Sequence record: PQ799574.1 | Reading direction: 5' to 3' (one strand) | Source: Escherichia phage vB_EcoM_Maryam | Length of the DNA: 64,000 nt | Part shown: positions 10,093-59,900 of the stretch, in pieces | Numbering within the stretch: position 1 is the first letter of the stretch | How the letters are laid out: every line of letters begins with the position of its first letter | Program-made: the position numbers and the translations under genes | The notes under the pieces: model-generated | The model's database searches: none | Told to the model about the DNA's origin: nothing | Seen by the model: the letters and a program-made list of their open reading frames with translations, nothing else

Positions 10093-11108
10093 AAATTTTA
10101 AATTTAGGTGATTGGCATTTAGGCGTTAAAGCTGATGATGAGTGGGTTCAATCCATTCAGTTGGATGGAATTAAACAAGCAATAGAATATTCTAAGAAAA
10201 ATGGAATTACTACCTGGATTCAATACGGCGATATTTTTGATGTGCGAAAAGCGATCACGCATAAAACTATGGAGTTTGCTCGTGAAATAGTTCAAATGCT
10301 TGATGATGCTGGTATTACCCTACATACTATTGTAGGAAACCATGATATGCACTTTAAAAATACTTTAACTCCAAATGCCTCTACTGAGCTTTTGGCTAAA
10401 TATCCTAATGTTAAAGTATATGATAAGCCTACTACAGTAGATTTTGACGGATGTTTAATTGATTTAATTCCTTGGATGTGTGAAGAAAATACTGGTGAAA
10501 TTCTTGAACACATCAAAACTTCATCTGCTTCTTTTTGTGTTGGTCACTGGGAACTGAATGGATTTTATTTTTATAAAGGAATGAAATCTCATGGTCTTGA
10601 ACCTGATTTCCTTAAGACTTATAAAGAAGTGTGGTCTGGTCACTTCCATACTATTTCTGAGGCTGCAAACGTCAGATATATTGGGACACCATGGACACTA
10701 ACTGCAGGTGACGAGAATGACCCTCGTGGGTTCTGGATGTTTGATACAGAAACAGAACGAATGGAATTTATTCCAAACAATACTACCTGGCATCGTAGAA
10801 TTCATTATCCATTTAAAGGAAAAATTGACTATAAAGATTTTACAAATCTATCAGTACGTGTTATAGTAACTGAAGTAGACAAAAATCTAACGAAGTTCGA
10901 ATCTGAACTAGAAAAAGTTGTGCATTCATTACGAGTTGTGTCAAAGATTGATAACTCTGTCGAGTCAGATGACAGTGAAGAAGTTGAAGTTCAATCTCTT
11001 CAGACGTTGATGGAAGAATACATTAATGCAATTCCAGACATCACTGATTCTGATCGCGAAGCACTTATTCAATATGCAAATCAGTTATATGTAGAGGCAA
11101 CACAATGA
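10089..11108 (+). CDS. 47: recombination endonuclease subunit gp47 (Mre11-like)
   Basis: 339 aa; phosphoesterase motifs (GDWH, GNHD); recalled T4 gp47. Confidence 0.9.
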   Translation: MKILNLGDWHLGVKADDEWVQSIQLDGIKQAIEYSKKNGITTWIQYGDIFDVRKAITHKTMEFAREIVQMLDDAGITLHTIVGNHDMHFKNTLTPNASTELLAKYPNVKVYDKPTTVDFDGCLIDLIPWMCEENTGEILEHIKTSSASFCVGHWELNGFYFYKGMKSHGLEPDFLKTYKEVWSGHFHTISEAANVRYIGTPWTLTAGDENDPRGFWMFDTETERMEFIPNNTTWHRRIHYPFKGKIDYKDFTNLSVRVIVTEVDKNLTKFESELEKVVHSLRVVSKIDNSVESDDSEEVEVQSLQTLMEEYINAIPDITDSDREALIQYANQLYVEATQ

Positions 11109-11368
11109 CTTTTGATGAATTTAAAAATGTTATGATGAGTCAGCATTTTGAATGCGAAGTAAAAGATGATATTGGTCATAAAGAAATTATTGAATATTGG
11201 TTTGAACCGCTAGAGGTTGAAGATAATTGTATTAAAAAGGTTACGGTCTGCACTGACTGGGCTGTATCTTTTAACTTCAACATTTTAGATAATGACACAC
11301 CTAAATCATTACGAGATATGGCTGTATCTTGTATTAAGGATGCATATTGTGAAGTTTTCGACATTTGA
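11105..11368 (+). CDS. hypothetical protein between 47 and 46
   Basis: ORF track 87 aa. Confidence 0.5.
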   Translation: MTFDEFKNVMMSQHFECEVKDDIGHKEIIEYWFEPLEVEDNCIKKVTVCTDWAVSFNFNILDNDTPKSLRDMAVSCIKDAYCEVFDI

Positions 11369-11555
11369 CATTAATGATGAATTCATAGCAAATATTGATT
11401 ATACCGAAGAAGATTCTAGATATGTTGGAATAATTTATATTACATCAAAAACAGCACAAGGTGTTGTTTGCATGGCTGAATTTGATGAATACTTTTTAGA
11501 TTATGATGATATGATAGAATGGTCTAAAAGATACATTAAAAGGAATCTTTTGTGA
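11340..11555 (+). CDS. hypothetical protein between 47 and 46, start uncertain
   Basis: ORF track 11292..11555 overlaps previous ORF; ATG 11340 is alternative start. Confidence 0.4.
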   Translation: MHIVKFSTFDINDEFIANIDYTEEDSRYVGIIYITSKTAQGVVCMAEFDEYFLDYDDMIEWSKRYIKRNLL

Positions 11556-13234
11556 AGAATTTTAAACTAAACCGAGTTAGGTATCAAAATATAATGTCAG
11601 TAGGTGGAAATCCTATTGACATTCAATTAGATAAGGTTCAAAAAACTCTTATTACTGGACGAAATGGCGGTGGTAAGTCTACTATGCTAGAAGCCATCAC
11701 ATTTGGGCTTTTTGGTAAGCCATTTCGTGATGTAAAGAAAGGTCAATTAATAAACAGCACAAATAAGAAAGAACTTTTAGTTGAACTGTGGATGGAATAT
11801 GATGAGAAAAAGTACTATATCAAAAGAGGACAAAAACCAAACGTTTTCGAAATCACCGTTAACGGTACACGTCTTAATGAATCTGCCAGCAGTAAAGATT
11901 TCCAAGCAGAATTTGAACAGCTTATCGGAATGTCATATGCCAGTTTCAAGCAGATTGTTGTCCTTGGTACAGCAGGGTATACCCCTTTCATGGGTTTGTC
12001 GACCCCTGCACGAAGAAAGCTTGTGGAAGACCTGCTTGAGGTAGGAACATTAGCTGAAATGGATAAGCTTAATAAAGCACTAATACGTGAATTAAATTCG
12101 CAGAACCAAGTGCTTGATGTTAAAAAAGATAGTATTATCCAACAAATTAAAATATATAATGATAACGTTGAACGCCAGAAAAAATTGTCTGGTGACAACC
12201 TTACTCGTCTGCAGAATATGTATGATGATTTGGCAAAAGAAGCTAGAACGCTAAAATCGGAAATAGAAGAAGCTAATGAAAGATTAGTTAATATTGTTTT
12301 AGATGAAGACCCGACTGATGCATTTAATAAAATCGGTCAAGAAGCATTTTTAATTAAATCAAAAATTGACTCGTATAATAAAGTCATTAATATGTATCAT
12401 GAAGGTGGATTATGTCCAACCTGTTTGTCACAATTAAGTTCCGGTGATAAAGTTGTTTCTAAAATTAAAGATAAAGTTTCTGAATGTACGCATTCATTTG
12501 AACAGCTTTCAACACACCGTGATAATTTAAAAGTTCTTGTTGATGAATACCGAGATAATATTAAAACCCAGCAGTCGTTGGCAAATGATATTCGCAATAA
12601 AAAGCAATCTCTAATCACGACGGTAGATAAAGCTAAAAAAGTTAAAGCGGCTATAGAAAAAGCATCTTCTGAGTTTATTGACCATGCTGATGAAATAGCA
12701 CTGCTTCAAGAAGAACTTGATAAAATTGTTAAGACAAAAACTAATTTAGTAATGGAAAAATACCACCGAGGAATTTTGACTGATATGCTCAAAGATTCTG
12801 GTATTAAAGGTGCTATTATTAAAAAGTACATTCCATTATTTAATAAGCAGATTAACCATTATCTTAAAATAATGGAAGCGGATTATGTGTTTACATTAGA
12901 TGAAGAATTTAATGAGACAATTAAATCCCGTGGTCGTGAAGATTTTAGTTATGCTTCATTTAGTGAAGGTGAAAAGGCACGAATTGATATTGCTCTTTTA
13001 TTTACTTGGCGTGATATTGCTTCTATCGTATCTGGTGTTAGTATTAGTACATTAATTCTTGATGAAGTGTTTGATGGGTCATTTGATGCCGAAGGTATTA
13101 AAGGTGTAGCTAATATTATAAATTCAATGAAAAACACTAATGTTTTTATAATTTCGCATAAAGACCATGACCCGCAAGAATATGGTCAGCATCTTCAAAT
13201 GAAGAAAGTTGGTCGATTTACTATAATGGTTTAA
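11552..13234 (+). CDS. 46: recombination endonuclease subunit gp46 (Rad50-like ATPase)
   Basis: 560 aa; Walker A GRNGGGKST; coiled-coil middle with CPTC zinc hook; GTG start. Confidence 0.9.
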   Translation: MKNFKLNRVRYQNIMSVGGNPIDIQLDKVQKTLITGRNGGGKSTMLEAITFGLFGKPFRDVKKGQLINSTNKKELLVELWMEYDEKKYYIKRGQKPNVFEITVNGTRLNESASSKDFQAEFEQLIGMSYASFKQIVVLGTAGYTPFMGLSTPARRKLVEDLLEVGTLAEMDKLNKALIRELNSQNQVLDVKKDSIIQQIKIYNDNVERQKKLSGDNLTRLQNMYDDLAKEARTLKSEIEEANERLVNIVLDEDPTDAFNKIGQEAFLIKSKIDSYNKVINMYHEGGLCPTCLSQLSSGDKVVSKIKDKVSECTHSFEQLSTHRDNLKVLVDEYRDNIKTQQSLANDIRNKKQSLITTVDKAKKVKAAIEKASSEFIDHADEIALLQEELDKIVKTKTNLVMEKYHRGILTDMLKDSGIKGAIIKKYIPLFNKQINHYLKIMEADYVFTLDEEFNETIKSRGREDFSYASFSEGEKARIDIALLFTWRDIASIVSGVSISTLILDEVFDGSFDAEGIKGVANIINSMKNTNVFIISHKDHDPQEYGQHLQMKKVGRFTIMV

Positions 13235-13248
13235 TTTATAAGAGATTA

Positions 13249-13272
13249 TGCTTTAATTTATTAGAGTATAAT
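13249..13272 (+). promoter_or_regulatory. middle-type promoter (MotA box TGCTTTA plus TATAAT)
   Basis: TGCTTTA 13249-13255, TATAAT 13267-13272. Confidence 0.4.
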
Positions 13273-13289
13273 CTCTATGGAGGAAAAAC

Positions 13290-13478
13290 ATGGAATATTC
13301 AACTGGACAGCATCTATTAACTATTCCTGAAATAAAACGATATATTCTGAGAAATAATTTTTCTAATGAAGAGCATATAGTTACTGAATCTATGCTTAGG
13401 AATGCATTTAAAGCAGAATATACAAAAATAATGTCCAATAGAAATGAAGCTTGGACTGTTACTGATTATTATGACTAA
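13290..13478 (+). CDS. hypothetical protein (gene 45.2-like)
   Basis: ORF track 62 aa; position between 46 and rpbA. Confidence 0.5.
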   Translation: MEYSTGQHLLTIPEIKRYILRNNFSNEEHIVTESMLRNAFKAEYTKIMSNRNEAWTVTDYYD

Positions 13479-13487
13479 AGGTGTATT

Positions 13488-13877
13488 ATGACTAAAATTA
13501 CTGTGAATTATACTGTTGATGTAAAAGATATTCAGCCAAAACACGTGCGTTCTGAATCAAATCCACAAAACCAAAATAAAATTCGTCGCGCATGGGTTTT
13601 GTCTCTTTCTGATAACGCAATGGAAGTTATTCAGAATAAAATTAAATCTGCACCTGCTCGTCATGCGTATTATGAAGCTATCGATCGTGAAGTAAGTAAT
13701 AAATGGATTGAACTAATGCGCAAACATACTACAGAATCCCTAAACGCCGGTGCTAAATTTATTATGACTTCATGTGGTGAACGCCTTGAAGATGATTATT
13801 GTGGTAATGCAGATGAACGTCTAATTGTTGCTGCTCAAATTGTTGCGGAAACAATTGCGGCTGATTTTAATCGTTAA
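13488..13877 (+). CDS. rpbA: RNA polymerase-binding protein RpbA
   Basis: 129 aa, position immediately upstream of gene 45 start; recalled T4 size. Confidence 0.6.
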
Positions 13878-13932
13878 TTGCTTTATTAAATTAGTTATAA
13901 AATTAAATCTCATTTGAATTGAAGGAAATTAC

Positions 13933-13992
13933 ATGAAACTGTCTAAAGATACTACTGCTCTGCTTAAAAATTTCGCTACTATTAACTCGTAA
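13933..13992 (+). pseudogene. 45: sliding clamp gene 45, 5' fragment only (19 codons then TAA)
   Basis: MKLSKDTTALLKNFATINS matches recalled gp45 N-terminus; remainder of the ~228-aa gene absent. Confidence 0.8.
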
Positions 13993-14062
13993 TTAAAATC
14001 GCAGCAGTTTTTTCATTCAGAACATCGTTAGAAGCTTTGATGATGTAAGTTACTTTAGACAT
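13982..14062 (-). pseudogene. motA: motA (middle transcription activator), 5' fragment only (25 codons)
   Basis: Minus-strand MSKVTYIIKASNDVLNEKTAAILIT then S and stop; matches recalled MotA N-terminus; converges on the gene 45 fragment. Confidence 0.75.
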
Positions 14063-14159
14063 TTTGTTTCTCCGTAGTTGATAAGACTATAATACCATAA
14101 GTTAAAGCAGAAGTAAACTTTATTTTGAGCTCTTTTTCAAGAGCTCTGGTAAAAATTAC

Positions 14160-14375
14160 TTAGATTGATAGGTCTTTAATCTTAGCTATTAAAACAGCTT
14201 TTCCTTCACGAAGTTTTTCCAGTTTACGACCATTAGAGCCGCGAACTACTAAGGAATTTATCTCCACTTCCAACCAATTTAGTTTTTCAACTAGTTCTTT
14301 ACGTTTAGCATTCATGCCGGGTTTAACTTTACCGAAACGGGTGGTAGCGTTTTGAGTATTTTTCATCTTATTCAT
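14160..14375 (-). CDS. hypothetical basic protein between motA and 52
   Basis: ORF track 71 aa. Confidence 0.5.
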   Translation of the reverse strand: MNKMKNTQNATTRFGKVKPGMNAKRKELVEKLNWLEVEINSLVVRGSNGRKLEKLREGKAVLIAKIKDLSI

Positions 14376-14417
14376 TTTAATCTCCAGTTATTTTTCTGTA
14401 TCAGTGTTGATAGGGTA

Positions 14418-14447
14418 ATAGTACCATGGAATGCTTTGGTTGTAAAC
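14418..14447 (-). promoter_or_regulatory. T4-type early promoter (GTTTACA 17 nt TACTAT) on minus strand
   Basis: Reverse complement of 14418-14447 reads GTTTACA...TACTAT; upstream of ORF 14160..14375. Confidence 0.5.
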
Positions 14448-14469
14448 CGTTTTGTGAAAAAAATTTTAA

Positions 14470-14497
14470 ATAAAAAAGGGAGAGCCGAGGCTCTCCC
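14470..14497 (-). terminator. GGGAGAG / CTCTCCC hairpin with T-run on minus strand
   Basis: Perfect 7-bp inverted repeat 14478-14484 / 14491-14497; A-run on plus strand gives U-run in minus-strand RNA. Confidence 0.55.
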
Positions 14498-14502
14498 TAA
14501 AA

Positions 14503-17429: not shown

Positions 17430-17529
17430 AGTAAACGTTTAATACATCAATCATTAAAACGATTGGGAATATACTCAAAACAACTAAAATTATAATTATA
17501 TTCCATATAGCTTTAATAATCTTTTTCAT
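17416..17529 (-). CDS. small membrane protein (37 aa)
   Basis: Internal ATG of ORF 17416..17664 with GGAGGA upstream; MKKIIKAIWNIIIILVVLSIFPIV... Confidence 0.4.
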   Translation of the reverse strand: MKKIIKAIWNIIIILVVLSIFPIVLMIDVLNVYFGFM

Positions 17530-17557
17530 TTTGTGTTCCTCCGTGGTTGATAGGGTA

Positions 17558-17587
17558 ATAATACCACAGAGGAACAGTCTTGTAAAC
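17558..17587 (-). promoter_or_regulatory. T4-type early promoter (GTTTACA 17 nt TATTAT)
   Basis: Reverse complement reads GTTTACAAGACTGTTCCTCTGTGGTATTAT. Confidence 0.5.
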
Positions 17588-17836
17588 AACTTTTTTAAAA
17601 ATATTCGTAATAAATGTGAATACCAATCACTACTGCCGAAACTTGCGCAACCCACCACGCACAAGCAATAAGTACAGAATTAAAAATTTTCATAATAACC
17701 TCATCACAAAAGTAAATGTTAAACAAATTACTGGAATACTAATTAACCAAACAAAACACCACCACAATGAACTCATAGTTCAATCTCAGCGATTTTCATT
17801 TTATTCTCCAAATCTGTATCAGTAGTTGATAGTTGT

Positions 17837-17866
17837 ATAGTACCACGGTCCTTGTGGTATGTAAAC
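17837..17866 (-). promoter_or_regulatory. T4-type early promoter (GTTTACA 17 nt TACTAT)
   Basis: Reverse complement reads GTTTACATACCACAAGGACCGTGGTACTAT; near-identical copy at 45026-45055. Confidence 0.5.
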
Positions 17867-17881
17867 CATTTTGTGAAATTT

Positions 17882-18439
17882 TTAAATGGAAAGATACCAT
17901 CCATTGTAGTTGCTTTTTCTTACAACCTTACGAAGGTCTTCTCTATCACCGATGAACTTCGGAGTGTACTGGATGACACCTGGATGAATTTCTTTAGTGT
18001 TGAATATAATTATACAGTCCGCGACCTGGTGATTTAGAATGGGCCCTAGATTTATTCCAGAACCATATGGATACTCTCCGCTGCATCCTGTTGTTACAGA
18101 AATCCAACGTGAGTCAGTTTGATGTGTCTTAACTTCTACACGGAGCCCGCAATATTTTGGATGTGCTAAAACATCCCATGCATATGTGTACGGATCATTG
18201 ACATCTTCTTGGCCTTTATTGACATATCCGCTTAGCCAATCTGCTACAAAAAACTCTGCGTACACAGCGATACGGCATCTTTCGATAACTTCTGTCTTAT
18301 CCTGATTTGGGTTTTGTTTTAAAGAGTATCTTGCAGTATCAGCAATTTTGACCTTCATTTCACCAGTCAAGTCACTGTTCGATAGGGTAAATGTCGGAAT
18401 CTGAAATAGTCTCTGTAGCCCCGGATTCGTTTTCTGCAT
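17882..18439 (-). CDS. denB: endonuclease IV DenB
   Basis: 185 aa, size and position (between ndd and rIIB) match recalled T4 DenB. Confidence 0.7.
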   Translation of the reverse strand: MQKTNPGLQRLFQIPTFTLSNSDLTGEMKVKIADTARYSLKQNPNQDKTEVIERCRIAVYAEFFVADWLSGYVNKGQEDVNDPYTYAWDVLAHPKYCGLRVEVKTHQTDSRWISVTTGCSGEYPYGSGINLGPILNHQVADCIIIFNTKEIHPGVIQYTPKFIGDREDLRKVVRKSNYNGWYLSI

Positions 18440-18496
18440 TTAAACTTTCCTTTATGTCGGAATCACTGATATTCATATAATAAATCATAAAACAAA

Positions 18497-18510
18497 AGGG
18501 CCGAAGCCCT
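18497..18510 (-). terminator. AGGGC-UUCG-GCCCU tetraloop hairpin
   Basis: Inverted repeat with CGAA loop on plus strand (UUCG in minus-strand RNA). Confidence 0.45.
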
Positions 18511-18514
18511 TATT

Positions 18515-18716: not shown

Positions 18717-18730
18717 CTTAGTTAAGGGCC
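18717..18730 (-). terminator. AGGGC-UUCG-GCCCU tetraloop hairpin (second copy)
   Basis: Same motif AAGGGCCGAAGCCCTTA as at 18497. Confidence 0.45.
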
Positions 18731-18737
18731 GAAGCCC

Positions 18738-19676
18738 TTATTTAAATTGTTCAGTAACGTCTTCAACTACTTCATATTGGCAGGTACGCATTTTAGCATC
18801 ATTGTAATCAATCGGAATTGATACTACATCACGTGGATGTACTTTAACTTTTACAACTCGGCTGGTTGAACTGCCAAAGTGACGAATATAAGATTTAGAA
18901 CACACATGCAGACCACGAGAACAAGTTTGTGTATCATCGTCATTCACACGAGTACGCGGCATTTTAACTACTTTACCAGGACTGTTATCAAAGGTATTTG
19001 AGTGACAGTCAAAGTAATTGCTGCGAACTACTTTCCAAGCATAGAAGTAACCATCTTCTGTAATTTCAATATCGTTTGCTACCAAGAAATCAAAAAGTCG
19101 AGATACCGCTTTCTGGCTTGGGTTTTCCAGCAGATTTTCCAAGAACGGAAAATAAAATTCAAAGTTTTCGCCTTTTTCCATCGAATCAAGAATACGATCA
19201 ACCAAACCAGACCGCAATTCAATATTTTGATAGAATAAGCTTCCACCTTCAATTCGAACATCGCCGGAAATATATTTTTCAACAGCACGACGAACATTAA
19301 TTTTTTGTGCCGCTTCTTCCAGCTTATCTGCTACAAGCAGATTAAGAATTTCCTGGAAGTTTGAATGAGTATTAGGAGTTGCGTTATAAGTTACACCGTC
19401 AACAGTAATTGAAATGAATTTTTTAGATGCATTCCAAATAATGTCAGATTTAGCAACTGGAGCAATAACTGCATCGCTATTAACTTTAACTGTAATATCA
19501 CCGCTAATAGTAACTTTAGAGCGTTTAGCTTCTTCAGCATTTTTCAAAACACGACGGATTGTGTCAACCGATACATCCTTCCAATAAGCTAATTCCTGCT
19601 GAGTGTAATTACCACTTGAATACAGTTTAACAATTTCAGCTTGTTCGTTTTTGGTCAGGCATTTAATATTGTACAT
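18738..19676 (-). CDS. rIIB: rIIB protein
   Basis: 312 aa, MYNIKCLTKNEQAEIVKLYSSGNYTQQELA...; adjacent to rIIA. Confidence 0.9.
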   Translation of the reverse strand: MYNIKCLTKNEQAEIVKLYSSGNYTQQELAYWKDVSVDTIRRVLKNAEEAKRSKVTISGDITVKVNSDAVIAPVAKSDIIWNASKKFISITVDGVTYNATPNTHSNFQEILNLLVADKLEEAAQKINVRRAVEKYISGDVRIEGGSLFYQNIELRSGLVDRILDSMEKGENFEFYFPFLENLLENPSQKAVSRLFDFLVANDIEITEDGYFYAWKVVRSNYFDCHSNTFDNSPGKVVKMPRTRVNDDDTQTCSRGLHVCSKSYIRHFGSSTSRVVKVKVHPRDVVSIPIDYNDAKMRTCQYEVVEDVTEQFK

Positions 19677-24290: not shown

Positions 24291-24658
24291 TTAAATTTAA
24301 TGGCTTGAAGAAGACTAATAACTCTCAAGCGACTTCTTTCATCTTTAACTGTAAAGGAAAGAGGGTCACCAGATTTCATAGTGATAGTGCATCCAAAATC
24401 AAAATTTTCGGGAACTTCTTTGAAGAAGTCAAATTCTTCATCATAAATTAGAACATTACTCTGACAACTATGAAGAATTTTTCCATCATTTCCAGATGCT
24501 GTACTAATCATTGTAACATTATGACCTTTCATATCTTCAACGATAAATTCACTAGTCAATATTACAGCATTAATAGAACTATTCCTATTACTAGCAGAAA
24601 GTAGAAATTTCTGTTCTTCACCTTCACGAATGCAATATTTCTTACCAATTTTAAACAT
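24287..24658 (-). CDS. hypothetical protein
   Basis: ORF track 123 aa. Confidence 0.5.
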   Translation of the reverse strand: MFKIGKKYCIREGEEQKFLLSASNRNSSINAVILTSEFIVEDMKGHNVTMISTASGNDGKILHSCQSNVLIYDEEFDFFKEVPENFDFGCTITMKSGDPLSFTVKDERSRLRVISLLQAIKFK

Positions 24659-25493: not shown

Positions 25494-25775
25494 TTAATTA
25501 AACATTGGAGCGATACGTTTCAGAAGAGTAGCAGCACCTTTAGCGAATTTTACATCATGAAAAACAGTTTCTTCTTCTGTAACAACTCGAACTTTAATAT
25601 TTTCACAATCCCAATTTTTACGAACAATCTTCAAAAGCTGCAGTAAATCTTTACATTCAGCAATATCGATAACACATCCACGAGAATCTTCCATTATCGC
25701 ACGATAACCGTAAGCCATACCATAATCGTTGAAAGATTGCTCGATGATAATTAAGTTTTCCATTTTATTCTCCAA
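25494..25775 (-). CDS. hypothetical protein
   Basis: ORF track 93 aa. Confidence 0.5.
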   Translation of the reverse strand: MENKMENLIIIEQSFNDYGMAYGYRAIMEDSRGCVIDIAECKDLLQLLKIVRKNWDCENIKVRVVTEEETVFHDVKFAKGAATLLKRIAPMFN

Positions 25776-25860
25776 GTTGTTTTCTGTATCAGTAGTTGAT
25801 ATTGATATAGTACCATAATCAACTACTGATGTATATAGTTTTATGAAAAAATTTTAAACT

Positions 25861-37342: not shown

Positions 37343-37510
37343 TTTTACTCTTCTTTTTCTTTAGATTCCTCTTTTTTCTTTTTAGGAATCTGTTCAGGAC
37401 CTTTATTTACTACAGCACCTGATGTTGTTCCAGTAGAGATATTTTCAGGATTACCACCTGAATCTCCAGCGACCATATCTTCTTTAATAAATTCTTTATA
37501 TGTTTTCATA

Positions 37511-37867
37511 TTAACCTCTATTCATAAAAGCATTAAAAATTTGGTCATCAATAGATGGCGCAGTAATATTTTCTGCATCATTTAGCAAATCATTAATTTC
37601 ATCAGATAGCATAACACATGTACCTTTATTTCCTGTAATTGTTACTGCACAATTACGAACGTTTTCTTTATCAAATTTTAGGTTAATATTTTCGTAGTGA
37701 AAATCCTTTAATGCCGAATATATCTTTAAAATGAAATTGTCTTTTACTACAATAAACCCAACCTCACTATTAAAACGCGGTTCATGGAAACTGTAATAAA
37801 CCTTTTCATCTATAAAATCGTATGAAATTTTTTCCATTTTTAAATATGAAAATTCAGAACTATACAT
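37511..37867 (-). CDS. hypothetical protein (61.1-like), shares C-terminal DDQIFNAFMN(R/K)G with next ORF
   Basis: ORF track 118 aa. Confidence 0.5.
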   Translation of the reverse strand: MYSSEFSYLKMEKISYDFIDEKVYYSFHEPRFNSEVGFIVVKDNFILKIYSALKDFHYENINLKFDKENVRNCAVTITGNKGTCVMLSDEINDLLNDAENITAPSIDDQIFNAFMNRG

Positions 37868-37868
37868 A

Positions 37869-38510
37869 TTAACCTTTATTCATAAAAGCATTAAAAATTT
37901 GATCGTCAATAGAAACTTTTACTTTAGGCTGTTCTTCAAACGGTAATTCATATCCACATATTACAATTTTGTGATCGATACCAAAATACACAGAAGCAAT
38001 ATTATTAATATTATTTTCAGTGAAATCTAAATTAACATCAATATCTTTTTGACTAACGCTCAAAGGATAATTAATACGAATAATTCGATTATCTTTAACA
38101 AAGATTCCACCGACATACTCTGTGCTGCGTTTAAAGTTTACACGTTTCCTAAATGAAAAATATTCAGGTTCTTTATGGGCTCGACTCATAGGGCTTAAAG
38201 TGTATTCCGAATATGAAATATCAAATCCTACACCTTCAATATGAGCCAAAGTGTCATGATTAAACCAATTATAATCGTATGCCAAATCCATTAAATTGTA
38301 ATATGTGAAAGGCACCGGATTAACATCATGTGTTGTACCTTTAAAATCTGCCCAGGCAACGATTTCGTTATCTTTAACAATTACAAAAATTGTGTCAATA
38401 AGATATCCACGGTTATTTTCATCAGGCGTTATATTATAACATTGTGCATCAGGAAATTTACCGTATTTAAACGGCGGATTTTTGTGCATATAATAAATCA
38501 TATTATTCAC
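37869..38510 (-). CDS. hypothetical protein (61.2-like), two internal VKDN-type repeats
   Basis: ORF track 213 aa. Confidence 0.5.
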   Translation of the reverse strand: MNNMIYYMHKNPPFKYGKFPDAQCYNITPDENNRGYLIDTIFVIVKDNEIVAWADFKGTTHDVNPVPFTYYNLMDLAYDYNWFNHDTLAHIEGVGFDISYSEYTLSPMSRAHKEPEYFSFRKRVNFKRSTEYVGGIFVKDNRIIRINYPLSVSQKDIDVNLDFTENNINNIASVYFGIDHKIVICGYELPFEEQPKVKVSIDDQIFNAFMNKG

Positions 38511-44381: not shown

Positions 44382-44762
44382 TCACTTAGTCAAATTTTTT
44401 ACGCATGAATTATAAGAATTCACTACATACTCCATCGGAGCATTTTTACCGGTACGCCATTGGTAATTATTAGCCCAATTTGCCCAAAGCTCGGCGCAGT
44501 AGTTTTCAATTTTTTCTTCGCGTGTAATTACATCCGAATTACGATATGCTTGAGCAGATTCATCTGGACGAATAGCTTCGTCAAAATTTGCCTGCATTTG
44601 TTCTACTGTTTGCTTTGGAGCTTCTTTATAACACTTGACATTAGGATTATAAAACTTGCTTGAACAGTTTACAATTTTTCCTACATCAGACTGATTTACT
44701 ACCGGTCCTTGAGCCACACAACCAGTAAGACCTAATGCAATAACCAAAATAGCGATTTTCAT
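44382..44762 (-). CDS. putative lipoprotein adjacent to imm
   Basis: 126 aa; signal peptide with lipobox LTGC. Confidence 0.5.
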   Translation of the reverse strand: MKIAILVIALGLTGCVAQGPVVNQSDVGKIVNCSSKFYNPNVKCYKEAPKQTVEQMQANFDEAIRPDESAQAYRNSDVITREEKIENYCAELWANWANNYQWRTGKNAPMEYVVNSYNSCVKNLTK

Positions 44763-44772
44763 AATAATTTCC

Positions 44773-45021
44773 TCAAATGCAAGTAGTAATTACTCCAGTA
44801 GTGCTTATGCAGGTATTACCCATTTGCACACCTAAAGATCCATTTGTATTCACATGAAGATTATCATCAATTTTAACTGATATTTTACCATTAGTGTGAA
44901 TAACGGTGCTAGATTTAATCACAGGTTGAGTATCATTTTCAACACTAATAAATGGAACTGCTACTAATGCAACTAAACAAACTGCTAAGCATCCCATAAC
45001 AATTTTCATTTTATTCTCCAA
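44773..45021 (-). CDS. secreted/membrane small protein
   Basis: ORF track 82 aa; hydrophobic N-terminus. Confidence 0.45.
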   Translation of the reverse strand: MENKMKIVMGCLAVCLVALVAVPFISVENDTQPVIKSSTVIHTNGKISVKIDDNLHVNTNGSLGVQMGNTCISTTGVITTCI

Positions 45022-45025
45022 ATCT

Positions 45026-45055
45026 GTATCAGTAGTTGATAGTTGTATAGTACCA
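45026..45055 (-). promoter_or_regulatory. T4-type early promoter (GTTTACA 17 nt TACTAT)
   Basis: Reverse complement reads GTTTACAAGACTGTTCTTCTGTGGTACTAT. Confidence 0.5.
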
Positions 45056-45163
45056 CAGAAGAACAGTCTTGTAAACAGTTTTGTGAAAATTTTTTAGGGA
45101 ATTCTAAAGGTCCAGAATCATCTGTTTTTCATAAGTATAGATTTATATTACTTGTATGAAAAA

Positions 45164-45179
45164 GGGACCCGGAGGTCCC
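45164..45179 (-). terminator. GGGACC-loop-GGTCCC hairpin with U-run downstream of gene 43
   Basis: Inverted repeat read from sequence; A-run on plus strand. Confidence 0.55.
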
Positions 45180-45192
45180 TAGATTTATTCTA

Positions 45193-47888
45193 TCAGCCAA
45201 ACAGGAAGTCTAACGAAGCTTTTTCTTCATAGTCCATACCAGCCGATTCACACATGCCTGCAAGCGGTTTAACAAACGATTTTTGGAACAAAGTTGAGTA
45301 GTCAATCCAAGATAGTACATCAGAACGAATTTCTTTTGGAAGTTCTGTACCCGACGGCCAAGCAATGCACTTGTCGCCAAATGGATTTCCTTCACGTAAT
45401 GGAAGAACCATTACCTTATTTCCATCCAAAATTGGAGCTACACCCAGACCACTAACAGCTCGACGATAAGTTAGCACACCACGAATATGGAACGGGCATT
45501 TAAATCCTGGCCAACCTTTATCATCATATTTCGCTATATCGTTCGCAGTTTTTACTTCAGCAATAACTTTATAGTCAAGTTGACGATATTCTTTCTCGAA
45601 GTTCTTGTAATATTCTTGGACAGACTCTTCACCTTCCTGAAGAATACGACGAATACTTTCTTCAAGAGCTTCTTGAACTGCTTTAGGCGTTGAACTTTGC
45701 TGAGTTTCCATACCCATGATTTTTAGATGCGGTTCAGCAAAACGCTTATCTTCCATATCATATACGTTCAGAGCATAACGCTTTTTCGCTTTCCAAAATC
45801 CACCAACGCCCTTTGAACCAAGTGGAGGGCAAGAAATAGCTTCACGGTCCATATGCATCAGATGCTCGCGGTTATTCATATAATCACATAACTCACGATA
45901 TGCAACATCAATCATAGGTTCCATCTTTTTCTTACCGAACTGATTCATGAATTCAACTAAATCGTTCTGCTCTTTGAATCGGTCAAGACCAACTTTTTCA
46001 ATAACTTTATCTACACAAACATATACCGAATCAGTATCACCTGCTGCAATGAAATCTTCGCCATTAGTTCCGCACACTTTATTCAGATACTCATTAATTT
46101 TACGAGCAATCCACTGAATACCAACTTGGCCGAAAATTGTGATAGCAGTAGCATTTCGCAAATCATAGTAACGGAAATGAATATTACCAAGAGCACCGTA
46201 AAGGCTGTTAATAAGAATTTTACGGTTCAGCTGATTTGTATTAGCAAGTGTAGCCGCTTTTTCACATTCTTCAATCAAACTATTGAGAACAGATTCAGTA
46301 TAATTCGATAGTTCATTTAAGAAATCATCACTGAACTTAACATATCGTTCAACTTCAGGTTTAGTTGAACAAGACCCTGCGCCTTTCATAATAATCTTTT
46401 TAATAGCTTCGGCATTCATTTCTTCAGCGAACATTTTCTTTTTCCAATCTTTACGCTGGAAAAATACTTTAGCGATTTCCTTTGGAATGATACCTTCTTG
46501 ATGCTTATCGTACATCCATCCATTCGGAGAACAAGAATATTCATCACTCGGTTTAGGAGCTGTTCCTGCGATATATTCATGAATTGGATGAACTTTAAAC
46601 TGACCACGAATAGTCTCAGGACTAATGTTAACCTGACGAATAATGCTCGGATACAGAGACGTCAAGTCAAAACTCATAATATATCGACGAGCAATTGGTT
46701 TAGGTTCAAATACAAATGCACCCGGAAAACTCTGTTTAACGTGCGAACCTTGTTGAGGAATAACCTTATGTTCACCTTTCAATGAGTTAAAAATAATAGC
46801 ATCCCAGGTTTTAATAGGACTCATTACACCAGAAAAAGGCATTTTAGCGTAATAAGACATACTTAAAACTAGATCGATAAACCCGCGAATTTTATCAATT
46901 GCTTGAACTGATTCTACGTCAATGATGTTATAACTAATGTATCGTTGATGATTAGTCTCACGAAGTTTATTAATAGGACCGTCGTATGGTAATTTACCTT
47001 TTTTGGTTTCATGCTGAGCAACTGATTCCAAAGAGAATGACGGCAAATTAGTAAATGCGAATTTCTTATACAAATCTAAATAATCAAGAATAGATACGCC
47101 ATCAATAGAATAAATTTCTTTGCTACCGTACATATTTTGGATAAGTTTAGATTTTACTCGACCGATTGGAGAGAAGCGTTTCATACTACGTTCACCGAGA
47201 ACCATTTTAACGCGATTCATGATATACGGAACGTCAAATCCCTCAATATTCCAACCAGTAAAAATAGCAGGTCGTTTCTGTTCCCAGAGATTGATATATT
47301 CCATGAGCATATCACGCTCATTATCGAATGGCATATAAATTACTCGGTCAAGAATTTCTTGAGGAACTTCATCACCACCTTCACAGTCAAGCTTAGCAGC
47401 TAACTTTGCATCCCATTTTGATACTGAACCATACATTGAATTCAAAAGGTCGAAAACATAAAAACGATCATCAATTGAATCGTAATGAGTGATAGCATCA
47501 ATTTCATATTCAGCTTTCATTGGGTCAGGAAATTTATCACCAGTAACCTCAATGTCACAGTTAGCTACACGAACAAATTTTCGGTCATAAACAATTTCTG
47601 AACCGTATGTATCACTGATAAAGCGAGTTTAAAATCGTTCATACCGAGAGCTTCGAGACCGATGTCTTCCATTCGTTTCATCCAATCTCGAGCATCTTTC
47701 ATTGATGGAAATTTTTGAGGAGCGCAGTTTTTACCATAGATGTCTTTGTACTTTGACTCTTCCTTACAATGCCTAAACATAGTTGGAAGATATTCTACTT
47801 CACGAGTACGTTCCTTTCCATTTTCATCAATATAACGTTCAACAATATTATTTCCGACTGTTTCAATAGAGATATAAAATTCTTTCAT
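45193..47888 (-). pseudogene. 43: DNA polymerase gp43 interrupted by a 1-nt frameshift near 47619
   Basis: N-terminal 84 codons in ORF 47565..47888, remainder in ORF 45193..47520 in another frame; the second frame is open upstream and reads ISDTYGSEIVYDRKFVRVANCDIEVTGDKFPDPMKAEY. Confidence 0.85.
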
Positions 47889-48585: not shown

Positions 48586-49131
48586 TTACCATTCCAATGC
48601 TAGTTTTTTGAGTTGTTTCTGTTCTTTTACGTTCTTAGTCACTTCTTTCAAAAAATCATCCGTGACTAAACCTTTTAGTTCTTTTAATACTAAAGGAAGT
48701 TTTCCATTTTTAGTAAGAATTGATTTATAGTTAATTGCATCATTTGTATTAACTTGATACCACTTAGCAAGTAACTTAATAATCAATACTTCGGTGGAAT
48801 CTTCAACCAGTTTTGCCCATTTACCGTATCTTTTACCACGAGGAACTGCAGCCATTAGATAATTAAAATGAGCTTCATCACTTAAGCCTGATCCAATTAA
48901 ATTCATAGCATATACAGCTGGCATGCACTCTGGAAATTGTGATAATGCATTTTCAACCATGAATTTTGAATAATCTTTTTGAGCAATAGAGCATTTAGTT
49001 TTATTATTGATAGCTCCAATTATTTCAAAAAATTCATTTTCAGCTTTTTCTTTAAAAGAATCAGCAGCGGATTGGACAGCTGTCCAATCTTTTGAATACC
49101 AAGCAAGTAGGAAAAGATTATGTATGCCCAT
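48586..49131 (-). CDS. 62: clamp loader small subunit gp62, N-terminus atypical
   Basis: 181 aa; from [15 protein letters not shown] onward matches recalled gp62, first ~9 residues MGIHNLFLL do not. Confidence 0.75.
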
Positions 49132-51728: not shown

Positions 51729-51744
51729 AAGGGGCCGAAGCCCC
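51729..51744 (-). terminator. GGGGC-UUCG-GCCCC hairpin between genes 37 and 38
   Basis: Identical core to hairpin at 47947-47962. Confidence 0.45.
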
Positions 51745-51749
51745 TCTTA

Positions 51750-54700
51750 TTATTTTAACAATGATTTAACTAATGCTTTAAGTTCTTCGATTTCTGATTT
51801 AAGTTCTGCAATTTCTGCAGTATGCTCATTGATTGCAGCTGTATTTAAACCAATTACACCGTTATAGTTCAAACGAAGTAAAGCTTCGCCATCAGGGTCA
51901 CCTTCAACTAATTCTGGTAAAATAGCTTGAACTTCTTGAGCAATTAAACCGGCGTTAGGTTCCCATTTCTGATTGCCTTCTTCATCTAGGCCTCGCTTCT
52001 GCATATAAGTGTAACCGTTAATTTTGGAAAGCTTCTCAGAAGCATTTTCAAATTTAACAAGGTCTTTTTTAACACGAATATCAGAACGGACATAAACATC
52101 TCGAACAAATGTGGAATAGGCATCGCTCTGTTGGACTAAATGACCAAAAGAAATAATAGCTCTTCCTTGTTCAGTCCACAAAGCACCAGTGGTATCCCAA
52201 AGACCTTCATGGAGATGGTAAGCGGACGACCATGAAGCAATATGCATTCCATTTGCAACCATATTAATTCGCCCATCACCGCCATGAACTAATCCAGTAT
52301 CATTATCACCAATAACAAGACATGGTCCAGTCCACACCGGGTCACCACCGCCAGCTGATAATCTTGCTCCGGTTTGAACCATGTTAGGAACATACAGAAC
52401 TCCAGTGTGGTGGAATTCATAGATAGCTTGTGGGTCAGAACCGTTTTCCTGGTTACCTACACGAATAATACCTTGTGCCCAGTTATTAGTAATGCGACGC
52501 ATACCAAAATCAACGCTAGATATGTATCCTTCATTCGTAATAGCAGATTTTCCTTTAATAATAGGATAATAACTATCATTACCAACATTACCAAAATCTA
52601 CAAATATCGGAGCTTCTTGTCGCCATTGGTTTCCCCAATCGCCAGCCTGGTGCGCAGTCCATTGTGTACCGTTTATATGAAGGCGGTCTCTATTAAAATT
52701 AAATGTTCCTTGACCTTGAGGAGAAAGCGATATTTCGCCGTTATTTGTTATGTATACACCACCCTGTGTAATGTAACTGTAAAAACCTAGACCGTTGTCG
52801 CCGCCACCTTTGCCTATATACCAGTTATTTGTACCACCTACATCACTACGGATATGTGATGAAGCACCTCCGCCAGCAGTTAAAACGAGAGCATCATTGC
52901 CTGCTGATAAAGTCAATTTACCAGTCATCGTGTCGCCTTCTTTAGAAACACGAGTAGCTATTGCATCGCGAATATTTGTGGTTTCTCCCGCAGAAGTAAA
53001 CGATTTCCAAATATCTGAGAAAATATTACCATTACGAGCAATAGTAGCTTCACCGCCGCCGACTTGAACGTTATCGGGGAAATTAACTGTACCGTCTTGA
53101 TTAAAACGAGACGTATGGCCTTGTGAACCATCTTCTTTTAAATGATGTAAAACAAATGTACCCGAATTAATTTCAGTACCTAAAGACCAAACAGCTTTAC
53201 TGTTTAAAAACTTCTGTTTAACAATAGGATAATATTTACTTACTGCGTCATCATCGATTTCCTGGAAAATAGGAGCTGCTTGAACATATTGAATATCATA
53301 ACCACCAGCGCCAGCGCCGTGACCAGTAAATTTAATATATCCGTTTGCTGCGAACGTATTGTAACTTGATTGTAAATCTGGAATAGTAACTTTACCAGTA
53401 TCTAAAGCCATACTAAACGGGCGAAGTGGACCGATATCACCATGTTTACCTTCACCATAAGCAGTTGGAATAATATGAAGACTGCCTTCTGAACGTCTAA
53501 AAATAGCTCCATAATCTGCGTTCCAAATGCGAAGAGCATTCACTGCTCCAGATGAAATTTCGCCTGTTGTGTGAACTCCTCTATTTCCAGCAGTAACACC
53601 AGATGATTCAAATGAACCGTTAACGTTCATTTCTACTTCACCTGTTGTAAGTCTTTGAATATAGCTCATCCAGCTAGTTGCATCGGAAATTTCCATGACA
53701 TTTTTGCGATTACCTTCACTAGGAATAGTAAATGTATTACCCCACACGGAAATTGTCATATTATCAACTGAACTACTACCAGTTGTGTTACCTCTAAACA
53801 TCAGTGTAGAAGCATTATTTCTACCATCGATATTAACAGAACCACCAATAACGTCAATATTACCAGGAGTAACTAACAAACCGCCATGAGTATTAATGTT
53901 TGTGGTACCCTTGCCGCGGAAATAATGATGATAGTTACCGCCTTGATAATATCCTAAAAGAGTCTGACCATCTCCAAACGCGTTATTATCGTGATATGTC
54001 ACGACAGTAGCAAGAGCATAATTTTCAGTTGGAGGAGTAGTTAAATCGGTTCCGTTAGTAGAATATCCAGCTACAAATTTTCTTAGGCTAGTTGTTTCGC
54101 TAGGACTAAATAAAAACGTTTTTGTTCCATTATTAACGCTAAAATAATATCCATCTTGATGCCATTTAAATCCAGTATCATTATCTCCTAAAGCAATACT
54201 AGATTGTCCTAATATTGAATAATCTTTATTACCAGGTGTTAAACCAATAGAAATTGAGTGACTTGATTTAATTCCGCCGCTCCAAGTAAATGACCAAAGA
54301 TAGGTGTCAAGTCCATCACCTGCATACCAAGTTATTCCATCATTATCTTTAACTTCATGGAAAATACCAGAACCAACGGCATTACGCATGACACGAAGAT
54401 GATTAATAGCAGTAGTGCTTTCAGACAATGGAACATTGTCTGCCATCGAATAGATGTCATAATCACCCGTAGATTTATTATTAGTAATGACTTTGTTGGT
54501 CAGAATTTGTGGAGACGAAATAGATTTCCATGCTGATACTTCAGGTGAAGTAAATAGTCCACTGCCTGAAAATGCATAAGTGCTTTCGCTACCAGCGGCG
54601 TAGTCTTGAACCCTGATATTAAGTACTTGTGTAGTTAAACCATCATTAGCCGGGGCATAAATGATTCCGCGTTCGCGACTATTGTTATCGAAAAAACGAA

Positions 54701-56912: not shown

Positions 56913-59900
56913 TTATTCAACCCATTCAAATTTAACAGTTTTATTCACTGGGTCAGGAATAATACGAACATTACCAATTCGCAAGAAATCACGAATAGTA
57001 AGATTACCCATTATAGCATTATCAGATGGTAAAGCACCGATATCAGATGGCTGAGGAGGGTTACCTCCGTCAAATACCTGAACAAAACTTGACCAAGAGT
57101 TTTTGGTTTTCTGCCATGTGCGTGTCCAACGAGTGGTACGCGCTTCTGGTGTTGTTGGATAAGTAATCCAATCTTGGTAAAGCGAATCAAGTGTGTTACC
57201 AAACTGAGTCAATGTACCAGGAGATTTAACTTCTTCGCCACGTTCTAAGTATGGAAGTCCAGTCACTTCATTAGTTTTTTCAACCATTTTAAAATAACCA
57301 GGGAATTGATTATAAGTGGCTGAATCGTTAATATCAATTGACCAGAATCCTACTGTATCAGTTGTTGGTGCGCGGGTATATAAATCAGATGTTTTAGTGC
57401 CCTGAGAACGAATTCTCGAGTTAACAGTCAAACCGCCTGAATTTATAGTAGCACCTTTGGCAATAATTAAGCTTTCGCCAATCGTTACTTGGCCAGATGC
57501 ATTATTAATAGCTAAAGGACGTAATCCATTAAATCCACCAGTCTGATCACCCGATGCAGTAAGCATAAAATTCGTTACTGATCCATCATTGCGAACAATG
57601 AAACCATAATTTCCGTTAATAGCACGGAAAGCATTTGCGCTTCGAGAAATAATTTCACCAGTTGCAGTGACTGAATTACCAAATGTTGCTACACCATTTG
57701 CATTCAATGTTCCTGAAGCATTAACATTTATAGGTGTTACTGTACCGTTGATATTAAATGTTATATTTCCGGCTTTATTGCGCTGAGAATAAAAATGACT
57801 AGATGTTTCATCACTAACTTCAAATACGGTAGAACGTGTTGTATCTAATTCCCCACTAAATTGATTTCCCCACACTCTAACAGTCATCGTTTGGGCTGGG
57901 TTTGTTCCAGTTTGAGGTCCTTTCTCAAAAATCAATCGAGTTGCTGTTCCAGTATTAGAAATAGTTAATGTACTATTTGCTGAAACTGATCCACCGAACG
58001 TAGCAGTACTAGATGATACAAGAGGGGCACTCAGATTCGTTTGTTGGGTTAAGGTTAGTGAACCATTAACTGTCTGCGCAATGTCCCTACGAATGAACTG
58101 AGATGAATCTAGACCATCCAATAAATTACTATCTACAGCTTTTGCTTTTAATGGCAAATAATTTGCTAATACACGGTTTAATTCATATGGTGATACTGCA
58201 TAACCATTTTTCTCATATGATTCTAATGGCTGTGTTGAACCTACCGTATCATTACCAACAAACGTTAATGAACCAGAAGAAGTTTTAACAAAGCCCCTTA
58301 TCGCAGTAGTTGCTGCCCAAGTAGATTCGCTCTGCACAATCCATTTTAAATTTTTTGGAGATACAGCAGTATTTGCTGACGTTCCAGTCACAGTTTCAGA
58401 CTGAGTTGCAACTTTAATAACACCTTCTTGTGCTTCAGTAGATTTAGTACCTAAAAGCTTTTTAGGAGTTATTAAAACATTATCTAATGTTCCTGCAGCA
58501 GCTTCGACCTGTGTAGCTACACGAAGTGTACCACGCTGTGTCTCATTTGCTTCAAGAATATCAAGGGTATAATGGTCCCAGAGAGTTCCTGATTCAACTA
58601 ATCCAGATAGAGCAACAACAGAAGTACGATCAGTACTATTAAATCTGGTTTTAATTTTTAATGGTGTAGAGATACGAGTATCGTCGACGCCTGCGTCGAA
58701 TTCAACCTGTGTAGCAATTTCAGCTATACCACTTAAACTTTCAGTTGCTCTACGGTCATTTAAAGTTTTAGGAGTGACTGCACGAGTATAGTCAGTTCCT
58801 GTGTTAACTTCACTTTGCGTAGCAATTTCAATTAAACCAATTCTTGCATCAGTTGATGTCTTTTTATGTAACGTTTCTGGCGTTACAACCGCATTTGCCC
58901 ATCCTTCTTGGCTTTGTCCAGCAATTACTTCACTTTCAACTGCTAAAATTACTGCGCCTTGTTGCGTTGGAGTAGCTTTATACTGATCCAAAGCTTTAGG
59001 TGAAACAACTAAATTATTAGTGTTTTTATTATAAACATTCGTACCATTTAATTCACGACTAGAAGCTGGAGTAGCACCTGCAGTAGATACAAAGGTTACA
59101 ATACCAGATAATGATTCAGAACCTTGACGAGCTTGAAGCTTTTTAGGAGTGATGATTGTAGTATCATCGGTTCCTGCATTAGTTTCTTGCTGCGTAGCAA
59201 TTTCTGCGACACCTCTACGAGTTTCTGTAGCAGTTCTTTCATTCAGCTTTTTAGGAGTAATGATAAGGTCATCTGCAAAAGAGAATGTGGTGTTCTGATT
59301 CACTTGAGCAGTAGTTGCTATTCTTGCAATACCTCTACGAGTTTCTGTAGCAGTACGATTAGCTAACGTTTCTGGAGTAATTGCCAATTCTTTTTGTGGA
59401 GAATTTTCTAAATCAGCATTAGCTTGAGCTTGTGTAGCTAAAGCAATTACACCTAATCTTGCTCTAGTAGAATCATTTAAAGAATCTACTCTTTCTACGG
59501 TTGGAACATTTTGCTGTACAACCCAATATTTTCCGTCAGAATCTTCTATATAAGCAAGCTCTAAAACTGGAACATAATTAGTTTCACCGTTAAAAACTAA
59601 TTCTTGAACTGTAACCCACTCAGCTTCAGGTGGATATTCTGAGCGTTTTGGGAATTGCAGCAATTGAACTGAAGAAGCAATTTTATCTTCACCTGCAGCT
59701 TTGATTTTAACCGTTTGTCCTTTTCTCATGTAATTCATAGAAATTTTGACAGTATCACCAACAGAAATATCAGTCGGAAGCTGAAGTTCAATTGTTTGGG
59801 TTGTTCCATTATTCGCGCCAAATACCATGACTTCTTCGTTTGGACGAATATTAGAATTAGTTGTTATAATGCGTAAACGTGCTTTACTATCCCCGTCAAA

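Follow-up and report, generated by a model that had tools for sequence, protein, structure and literature searches.

The closest described counterparts of the repeats analysed here are the promoter-early stem-loop (PeSL) cassettes of T4-type phages (Arbiol et al. 2010, PMC2839356; Comeau, Arbiol & Krisch 2014, PMC4122927). In these two papers, a PeSL consists of an A/T-rich tract, a sigma-70-like promoter (TTTACW-N17-TAYWAT in T4/PST) and a 3′ Shine-Dalgarno (SD) sequence with an ATG, usually together with a stem-loop, and PeSLs are clustered in variable regions, where they flank ORFs that vary between close relatives. The same work includes experiments with RB49 and phi1 that showed PeSL mini-circles, whose crossovers lay between the -10 element and the ATG, and it treats an exchange of ndd.4/.5 between T4 and PST (Figure 6A of the PeSL work) in the same region as one of the repeats described below, copy A. 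The PeSL authors drew an analogy to integron gene cassettes, small promoterless or self-contained ORF units that move in and out at recurring short sequences behind a strong promoter; unlike integrons, the phage units have no integrase and no attC structure, and exchange proceeds via the general recombination machinery of the phage on short homology.

Two further systems bear on the same stretch of DNA. T4 early promoters have been described as 'uber-promoters' that combine UP, -35, TGn and -10 elements with extra conserved positions beyond the sigma-70 hexamers (Hinton 2010, PMC2988021). For the phage endoribonuclease RegB, a degenerate consensus GGAGRAYARAA with a cut between GG and AG has been given (PMC3014915), and Durand et al. 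2006 (PMC1702504) report GGAGAAUAAAA as the optimal form of the RegB/S1 site and a sequence equal to GGAGAATAAAA as the requirement for efficient RegB cleavage.

The window analysed here is a stretch of 64,000 nucleotides from Escherichia phage vB_EcoM_Maryam (PQ799574.1). It belongs to a Tequatrovirus: ~44-46.5 kb is 99.8% identical to Shigella phage KRT47, and ~17-19 kb shows about 96% identity to T4. An earlier note on its sequence had described a near-identical early-promoter cassette of ~50 bp at 17,801-17,866 and 45,003-45,066, and the repeat was confirmed. Extending the match outward from the 47-mer quoted in that note revealed 55/55 identity between copy A (17792-17846, minus strand) and copy B (45002-45056, minus strand), which lie 27 kb apart. 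The two loci had been placed correctly, but the starts at 17,801 and 45,003 were a few bases off and out of register with each other, and the end at 45,066 fell short of the copy B -35 element. The 47-mer itself has exact matches at 17800-17846 and 45010-45056 only and was found in 0 of 100 shuffles, and copies A and B were the sole pair returned by megablast of the 64-kb window against itself, where they form the only long repeat. A scan of IMG/VR with the exact cassette core returned two contigs only. Since both copies are present at the same two loci in the independent genomes of T4, T6, PP01, GBLB0003 and Sf23, the pair is not an assembly artefact.

The window also contains several irregularities, all of which leave the two cassette loci untouched by an inversion junction or frameshift. 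A collinear block of 35 kb (13989-49106) is inverted relative to both flanks. At the junction 13988/13989, nt 1-56 of gene 45 (plus strand) are joined to nt 1-72 of motA (minus strand), and at 49106/49107, gene 62 without its first 43 nt runs into a block of arn.2-arn-asiA-t in inverted orientation. The sequence lacks gene 44, the larger part of gene 45, and the remainder of motA, arn.3 and arn.4. Positions 10500-13988 are 100% identical to GenBank PV290051.1 (46.9 kb). The inversion together with the missing essential genes is probably a misassembly, because such a genome would be non-viable. Gene 43 (45193-47888, minus strand), which encodes the essential DNA polymerase, shows a 1-nt deletion near 47621 relative to GBLB0003 and is read as ORFs of 107 and 775 aa; the deletion is likely a sequencing error. 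Elsewhere, four degenerate copies (62-75% identical) of a 68-nt unit occupy 58405-59381 within a long minus-strand gene.

Copies A and B display the same layout on the minus strand, which also carries all of the nearby genes. An A/T tract is followed by GTTTACA, 17 nt, TGG TACTAT, ACAACTATCAACTACTGATACAGATTT, and GGAGAATAAA ATG AAA AT, so that a leader of ~30 nt precedes GGAGAATAAAA and then ATGAAAAT. The reverse-complement GTTTACA that had been reported as the -35 element was found at 17860-17866 in copy A and at 45070-45076 in copy B, with the extended -10 element TGG TACTAT at 17837-17845 and 45047-45055, respectively (all minus strand). In copy B, a UP-like A/T-rich tract (CTAAAAAATTTTCACAAAACT, 45077-45098, minus strand) stands upstream of the -35, and transcription is predicted to start near 45040. 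The 55 identical bases comprise the extended -10, the leader, the SD and the first codons, ATGAAAAT (the ATG and 5 nt of coding sequence), with GGAGAATAAAATG, the SD plus start codon, at the 3′ end of both copies. The design is that of T4 early promoters, but the repeat consists mostly of transcribed leader and ribosome-binding site, outside the promoter proper. Upstream of the 55 bp, the -35/spacer regions differ between the copies and the two 17-nt spacers are unrelated, while the -35 (TGTAAAC on the plus strand) and the upstream TTTTGTGAAA(A)TTTTT tract are still shared.

A generic sigma-70 promoter scan returned counts equal to those of shuffles, with no enrichment in this AT-rich DNA, and is uninformative; the promoters are therefore called from their conservation across the family and their homology to T4. 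Among its hits, the scan listed TTTACA-17-TACTAT with a TG before the -10 at copies A and B and at further copies near 17.5, 14.4 and 14.1 kb, and AAAAA(T)TTTCACAAAA upstream of the -35 is kept across the cassette alignment. The MotA box (TGCTT at -30) is absent from the spacer, and GTTTACA occupies the -35 position. With an A/T tract, GTTTACA, a 17-nt spacer and TGn plus TAYTAT in both copies, and with orthology to T4 promoters, the earlier assignment to T4-type early promoters holds, and the conserved leaders that it had included are borne out by the family alignment. These features support reading copies A and B as candidate units of T4-type early promoter, leader and ribosome-binding site.

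Conservation of the leader extends beyond the SD, which might suggest a structured cis-regulatory RNA (a riboswitch, an sRNA or a protein-binding hairpin). We regard this as very improbable, as no structure is predicted for the leader (MFE -3.3 kcal/mol, z = 0.6 versus shuffles, empty centroid structure), which folds no better than shuffled sequence, and natural leader variants carry indels of 3 nt and of 12-15 nt. With no Rfam family matched anywhere in the 64-kb window and no leader structure predicted, the idea was dropped.

An unstructured leader agrees with a different role, that of an RNase target. The element GGAGAATAAAA is an exact match to the published optimal RegB/S1 site and doubles as the SD. 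It is located at 17799-17809 in copy A and at 45009-45019 in copy B (both minus strand), with the predicted cut in copy B between 45018 and 45017. Three matches occur in 64 kb (the third at 25763-25773), each of them in a cassette, versus 0.44 expected, and the requirement of RegB for a single-stranded site is in line with the predicted lack of structure. Compared with known RegB/S1 targets, the site is an 11-nt exact match in an intergenic, unstructured early leader that at the same time serves as SD, and its sequence suggests that RegB would cleave the cassette transcripts there. The cassette would then bundle three signals, namely immediate-early transcription, an efficient translation start and, as a prediction, RegB-mediated shut-off.

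The pair belongs to a larger family. The signature GGTAYTAT-N4-YTATCAAC occurs at exactly six sites in the window, all on the minus strand, versus 0.01 expected. Three related copies listed in the earlier note proved real and fall into one repeat family (D1; 14400-14465, 17540-17605 and 25789-25854, 61-79% identity), to which a sixth copy at 14052-14140 can be added. The ndd.4 promoter cassette (17519-17609, minus strand) matches copy B in its -35 and spacer (GTTTACAAGACTGTTC.TCTGTGG) and has a leader of the short type. The 14.4-kb cassette (14365-14469, minus strand) directly follows a terminator (14477-14498) and drives an inserted 71-aa ORF (14160-14375, minus strand, phrog_6200) between motA.1 and motA; the 14.1-kb cassette (14052-14140, minus strand) drives motA here. 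The 25.8-kb cassette (25753-25858, minus strand) has TATACA as its -35 and carries the third GGAGAATAAAA, and homology with other phages is lost at either edge (25756 and 25867). Within it, positions 25788-25830 form a 43-bp near-palindrome centred on the -10, with 20-nt arms that are 85% complementary and 3 nt apart, in which promoter spacer and leader are reverse complements of each other (ATCAACTACTGA); this near-palindrome is conserved in T4 and four other phages.

Copy A is situated after denB and before ndd.6, and copy B after the gene 43 terminator. T4 has cassettes at the same two places, preceding ndd.6 and imm.1, and a third copy with the same -10 and leader before nrdC.10, annotated with an adjoining terminator as 'early promoter 54.4' in GenBank U76612. 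The main text of the T4 dual RNA-seq paper does not mention ndd.6 or imm.1. The first full gene served by copy A is ndd.6 (17690-17776, minus strand, 28 aa), which is preceded by an 8-codon mini-ORF (17773-17799, minus strand) encoding MKIAEIEL, whose TGA overlaps the ndd.6 ATG and which is also present in T4. Behind copy B lies an ORF of 78 aa with a signal-peptide-like sequence (44773-45009, minus strand, phrog_4189), here termed orfX, followed by imm.1 (44382-44762, minus strand). The imm.1 start, ATGAAAATCGCTAT, matches the orfX start at 12/14 nt.

Codons 2-5 of orfX, AAAATTGTTATG (44995-45006, minus strand), match 12/15 nt of the RegA SELEX consensus aaAAUUGUUAUGUAA and are the only exact match in the window to its first 12 nt. 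According to a review, the SELEX consensus has no exact match in T4 messages. Judged by its sequence, AAAATTGTTATG may serve as a high-affinity RegA operator in orfX, which is absent from T4.

Compared with PeSLs, the promoter with N17 spacing, the A/T tract, the SD with start codon and indel crossovers inside the cassette are all present here, while the stem-loop is variable. The gene 43 intrinsic terminator (45163-45180, minus strand; AGGGACCtccgGGTCCCT followed by a T run) contributes a stem-loop to the PeSL-like unit of copy B, but it lies ~85 nt upstream of the promoter and does not adjoin it. In copy A, the denB stop codon (17882-17884) abuts the UP tract, so there is no intervening stem-loop, whereas at the 14.4-kb copy the terminator adjoins directly. 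A terminator hairpin of the type GGGCC-GAAG-GCCC recurs at 18496-18511, 18723-18740 and 51730-51755; two of these hairpins flank denB.1 and are readable as a terminator on either strand.

The same two loci carry quite another label in one related genome. The T6 record AP018814 annotates 40-bp features at exactly these positions, attL (24507-24546) after gene 43 and attR (166589-166628) after denB, as if an integrated mobile element had its attachment sites or its ends there. We give this reading next to no credence. It was rejected since the 27-kb interval between the repeats, here as in other Tequatroviruses (across the record ends in T6), holds core phage genes, among them rIIA/B, topoisomerase, dda, 41, uvsX and 42, and contains no integrase; the phage is virulent, and the repeats have the full anatomy of promoter and ribosome-binding site and belong to a family of six. 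The attL and attR labels look like an artefact of an automatic prophage-boundary finder.

The earlier note had further suggested that the cassettes could act as dispersed homology for illegitimate recombination, and had proposed comparing them with rearrangement endpoints in related phages. The syntenic 37 kb was compared from Sf23, T4, TH09, SG1 and SHFML-11, and both cassette loci were also compared in PP01, T6, JK23 and GBLB0003, giving nine related phages in total. The 71-aa ORF is absent from all five phages compared over its region; it is flanked by the 14.4- and 14.1-kb cassettes, its boundaries are 14079 and 14375 (17-bp overlap) in 5/5 genomes, and in the other phages the 14.4-kb-type promoter directly serves motA. 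At copy A, insertions break the homology at 17798-17819, inside the leader, in 4/5 genomes. Among 511 phage records matching copy A, it breaks at query positions 48-61 or 69-78, corresponding to 17792-17805 or 17813-17822 of the window. Behind the copy A -35/spacer there is nothing extra in the window and T4, orfA (MFTTAELK..., phrog_4535) in PP01, GBLB0003 and TH09, orfB (MKFKFYY..., phrog_2390) in T6, Sf23, SG1 and SHFML-11, and orfA plus orfB in JK23. At copy B, orfX is bounded at 44762 and 44996, the endpoint sequences being ATGAAAATTGTTAT and ATGAAAATCGCTAT, the latter at the start of imm.1. It is present in the window, Sf23, TH09, PP01, JK23 and GBLB0003, whereas T4, T6 and SHFML-11 lack it and have imm.1 directly next to the cassette; it is contiguous in 319/547 phage records matching its region. 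One and the same -35/spacer is followed by different leaders and genes from phage to phage.

Between 14.0 and 47.9 kb, 6 of the 41 distinct breakpoints fell in cassettes (7 with a 10-bp tolerance), versus 1.7-2.0 expected in a circular-shift test with 14 promoter cassettes covering 3.9% of the sequence (P = 0.02 and 0.013), the breakpoints being non-independent across related genomes. The enrichment of breakpoints within or at the edges of cassettes is real but moderate. Five of about 17 indel events touch a cassette, and ~12 of the 17 involve other, unrelated short repeats (1-49 bp) at gene boundaries. The suggested role as dispersed homology is supported, but 'illegitimate' is a loose term for exchanges that use 8-50 bp of homology. 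The coincidence fits cassettes that cause the exchanges as well as cassettes that merely travel with inserted genes, and does not show which.

A 49-nt direct repeat (37507-37555 and 37865-37913, 94% identical), made up of a gene end, an SD and an ATG, flanks a 357-bp ORF missing in T4, and the endpoints of the T4 deletion lie exactly within the repeat. It exemplifies the same process of short-homology indels at a site that is not a promoter.

Such cassette-free events bear on the possibility that the similarity of the copies is passive, that is, that selection has brought every early promoter, leader and ribosome-binding site to one optimum or that they are promoters of common origin brought along by their genes, and that they are not recombination substrates, indels simply favouring gene boundaries. 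Most indels in the 34-kb comparison do sit at cassette-free gene boundaries with other repeats of 1-49 bp, the enrichment at cassettes is modest (P about 0.01-0.02), and functional constraint on promoter and RegB site is documented. We nevertheless consider passive similarity unlikely. The 55/55 identity spans leader positions that are free to vary in other family members; the combinations of -35/spacer, leader and gene are shuffled, with switch points inside the conserved TATCAAC and ATGAAA stretches; and PeSL mini-circles with crossovers from -10 to ATG have been demonstrated in RB49 and phi1.

The sequence of the two copies also points to how the identity may have arisen. In copy B, a mosaic, the -35 and spacer (GTTTACAAGACTGTTCTTCTGTGG) equal those of the ndd.4 promoter at 17.5 kb, and everything from the -10 on equals copy A. 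At copy A, the 27 nt encoding MKIAEIEL and its stop codon are the in-frame 3′ end of orfB as found in T6 and JK23 (...NSNEMKIAEIEL and stop). The PHROG profile of orfB covers these 27 nt, with positions 1-87 of 87 aligned, and orfB is intact in T6, JK23, Sf23 and SG1. The arrangement in T4 and the window can therefore be explained by deletion of orfB between two microhomologies, GGAGAATAAATGAAAT at the beginning of the gene and AGTAATGAAATGAAAAT close to its end, the mini-ORF being the surviving 3′ end. In T4, imm.1 begins with AATGAAATGAAAATCGCT, 18 nt that also occur in the orfB 3′ region, so the two loci share sequence at both leader and start. The 55-bp identity of copies A and B would, on these grounds, reflect a shared origin. 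The mosaic and the scar fit excision and integration of an ORF together with a chimeric cassette, by analogy with PeSL mini-circles; from these patterns we infer the recombination mechanism and the direction of each event.

Concerted evolution of the copies was tested on their leader haplotypes. Within the window, the haplotype is the same at the denB and gene 43 loci (CAACTACTGATACAG; TAC+, A), and the two loci likewise agree within T4 (...ACGG; TAC+, G) and within T6 (CAACTGATACGG; TAC-, G), while window, T4 and T6 differ from one another. In TH09, PP01, JK23 and GBLB0003, the haplotypes of the two loci differ. Identical leaders were thus found in 3 of the 7 genomes with long-leader cassettes at both loci, versus about 1.1 expected under random pairing, a hint of conversion between distant cassettes that is not significant with so few genomes. 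Recombination between copies A and B themselves would cost the phage 27 kb of essential genes, which would leave the pair to exchange only by conversion or between genomes. We propose only tentatively, as a speculative extension, that the dispersed cassettes are actively homogenised by gene conversion across 27 kb and evolve in concert as an integrase-free platform for gene capture. If that were true, any ORF so acquired would fall at once under a single set of controls, the early promoter and the RegB kill-site, and orfX would add a possible RegA operator.

Taken as a whole, the data are best explained by a portable early expression cassette combined with gene exchange on short homology, a reading to which we assign a probability of roughly 85%. 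Host sigma-70 RNA polymerase would recognise the UP-like A/T tract, the GTTTACA -35 and the TGn-extended TACTAT -10, and the transcript would start with a ~30-nt unstructured leader ending in GGAGAATAAAAUG, a putative strong Shine-Dalgarno/start signal that would at once be an optimal target of the phage RegB/S1 endoribonuclease. The gene behind the cassette would be expressed from the onset of infection and silenced after a few minutes. With about six to nine cassettes per genome sharing 20-60 bp of near-identity, the cassettes would provide sites for crossover on short homology, where small accessory ORFs may be inserted, deleted or swapped between co-infecting relatives, the crossovers falling between the -10 and the first codons. 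Loss of orfB between two AATRAAATGAAA microhomologies would have given copy A its ATGAAAAT end.

The cassettes of the window are an instance of the PeSL kind, and PeSL-mediated modular shuffling has already been published. The 55-bp pair, the orfB-remnant ATGAAAAT and the mosaic copy B do not appear in the available sections of PMC2839356 and PMC4122927. The perfect RegB site, the mosaic copy B and the orfB scar are consistent with the PeSL framework and do not extend it. Current understanding is unchanged, and the locus offers a clean worked example of a published mechanism. For annotation, the cassette helps to place true start codons, identifies the 8-codon ORF before ndd.6 as a deletion scar and guards against att mislabelling of the kind seen in the T6 record. 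For the biology of T4-type phages, the cassettes form part of the turnover of small accessory genes, among them candidates for superinfection exclusion, host take-over and anti-defence, and they explain how new ORFs may arrive pre-wired for immediate-early expression and predicted RegB-mediated shut-off.
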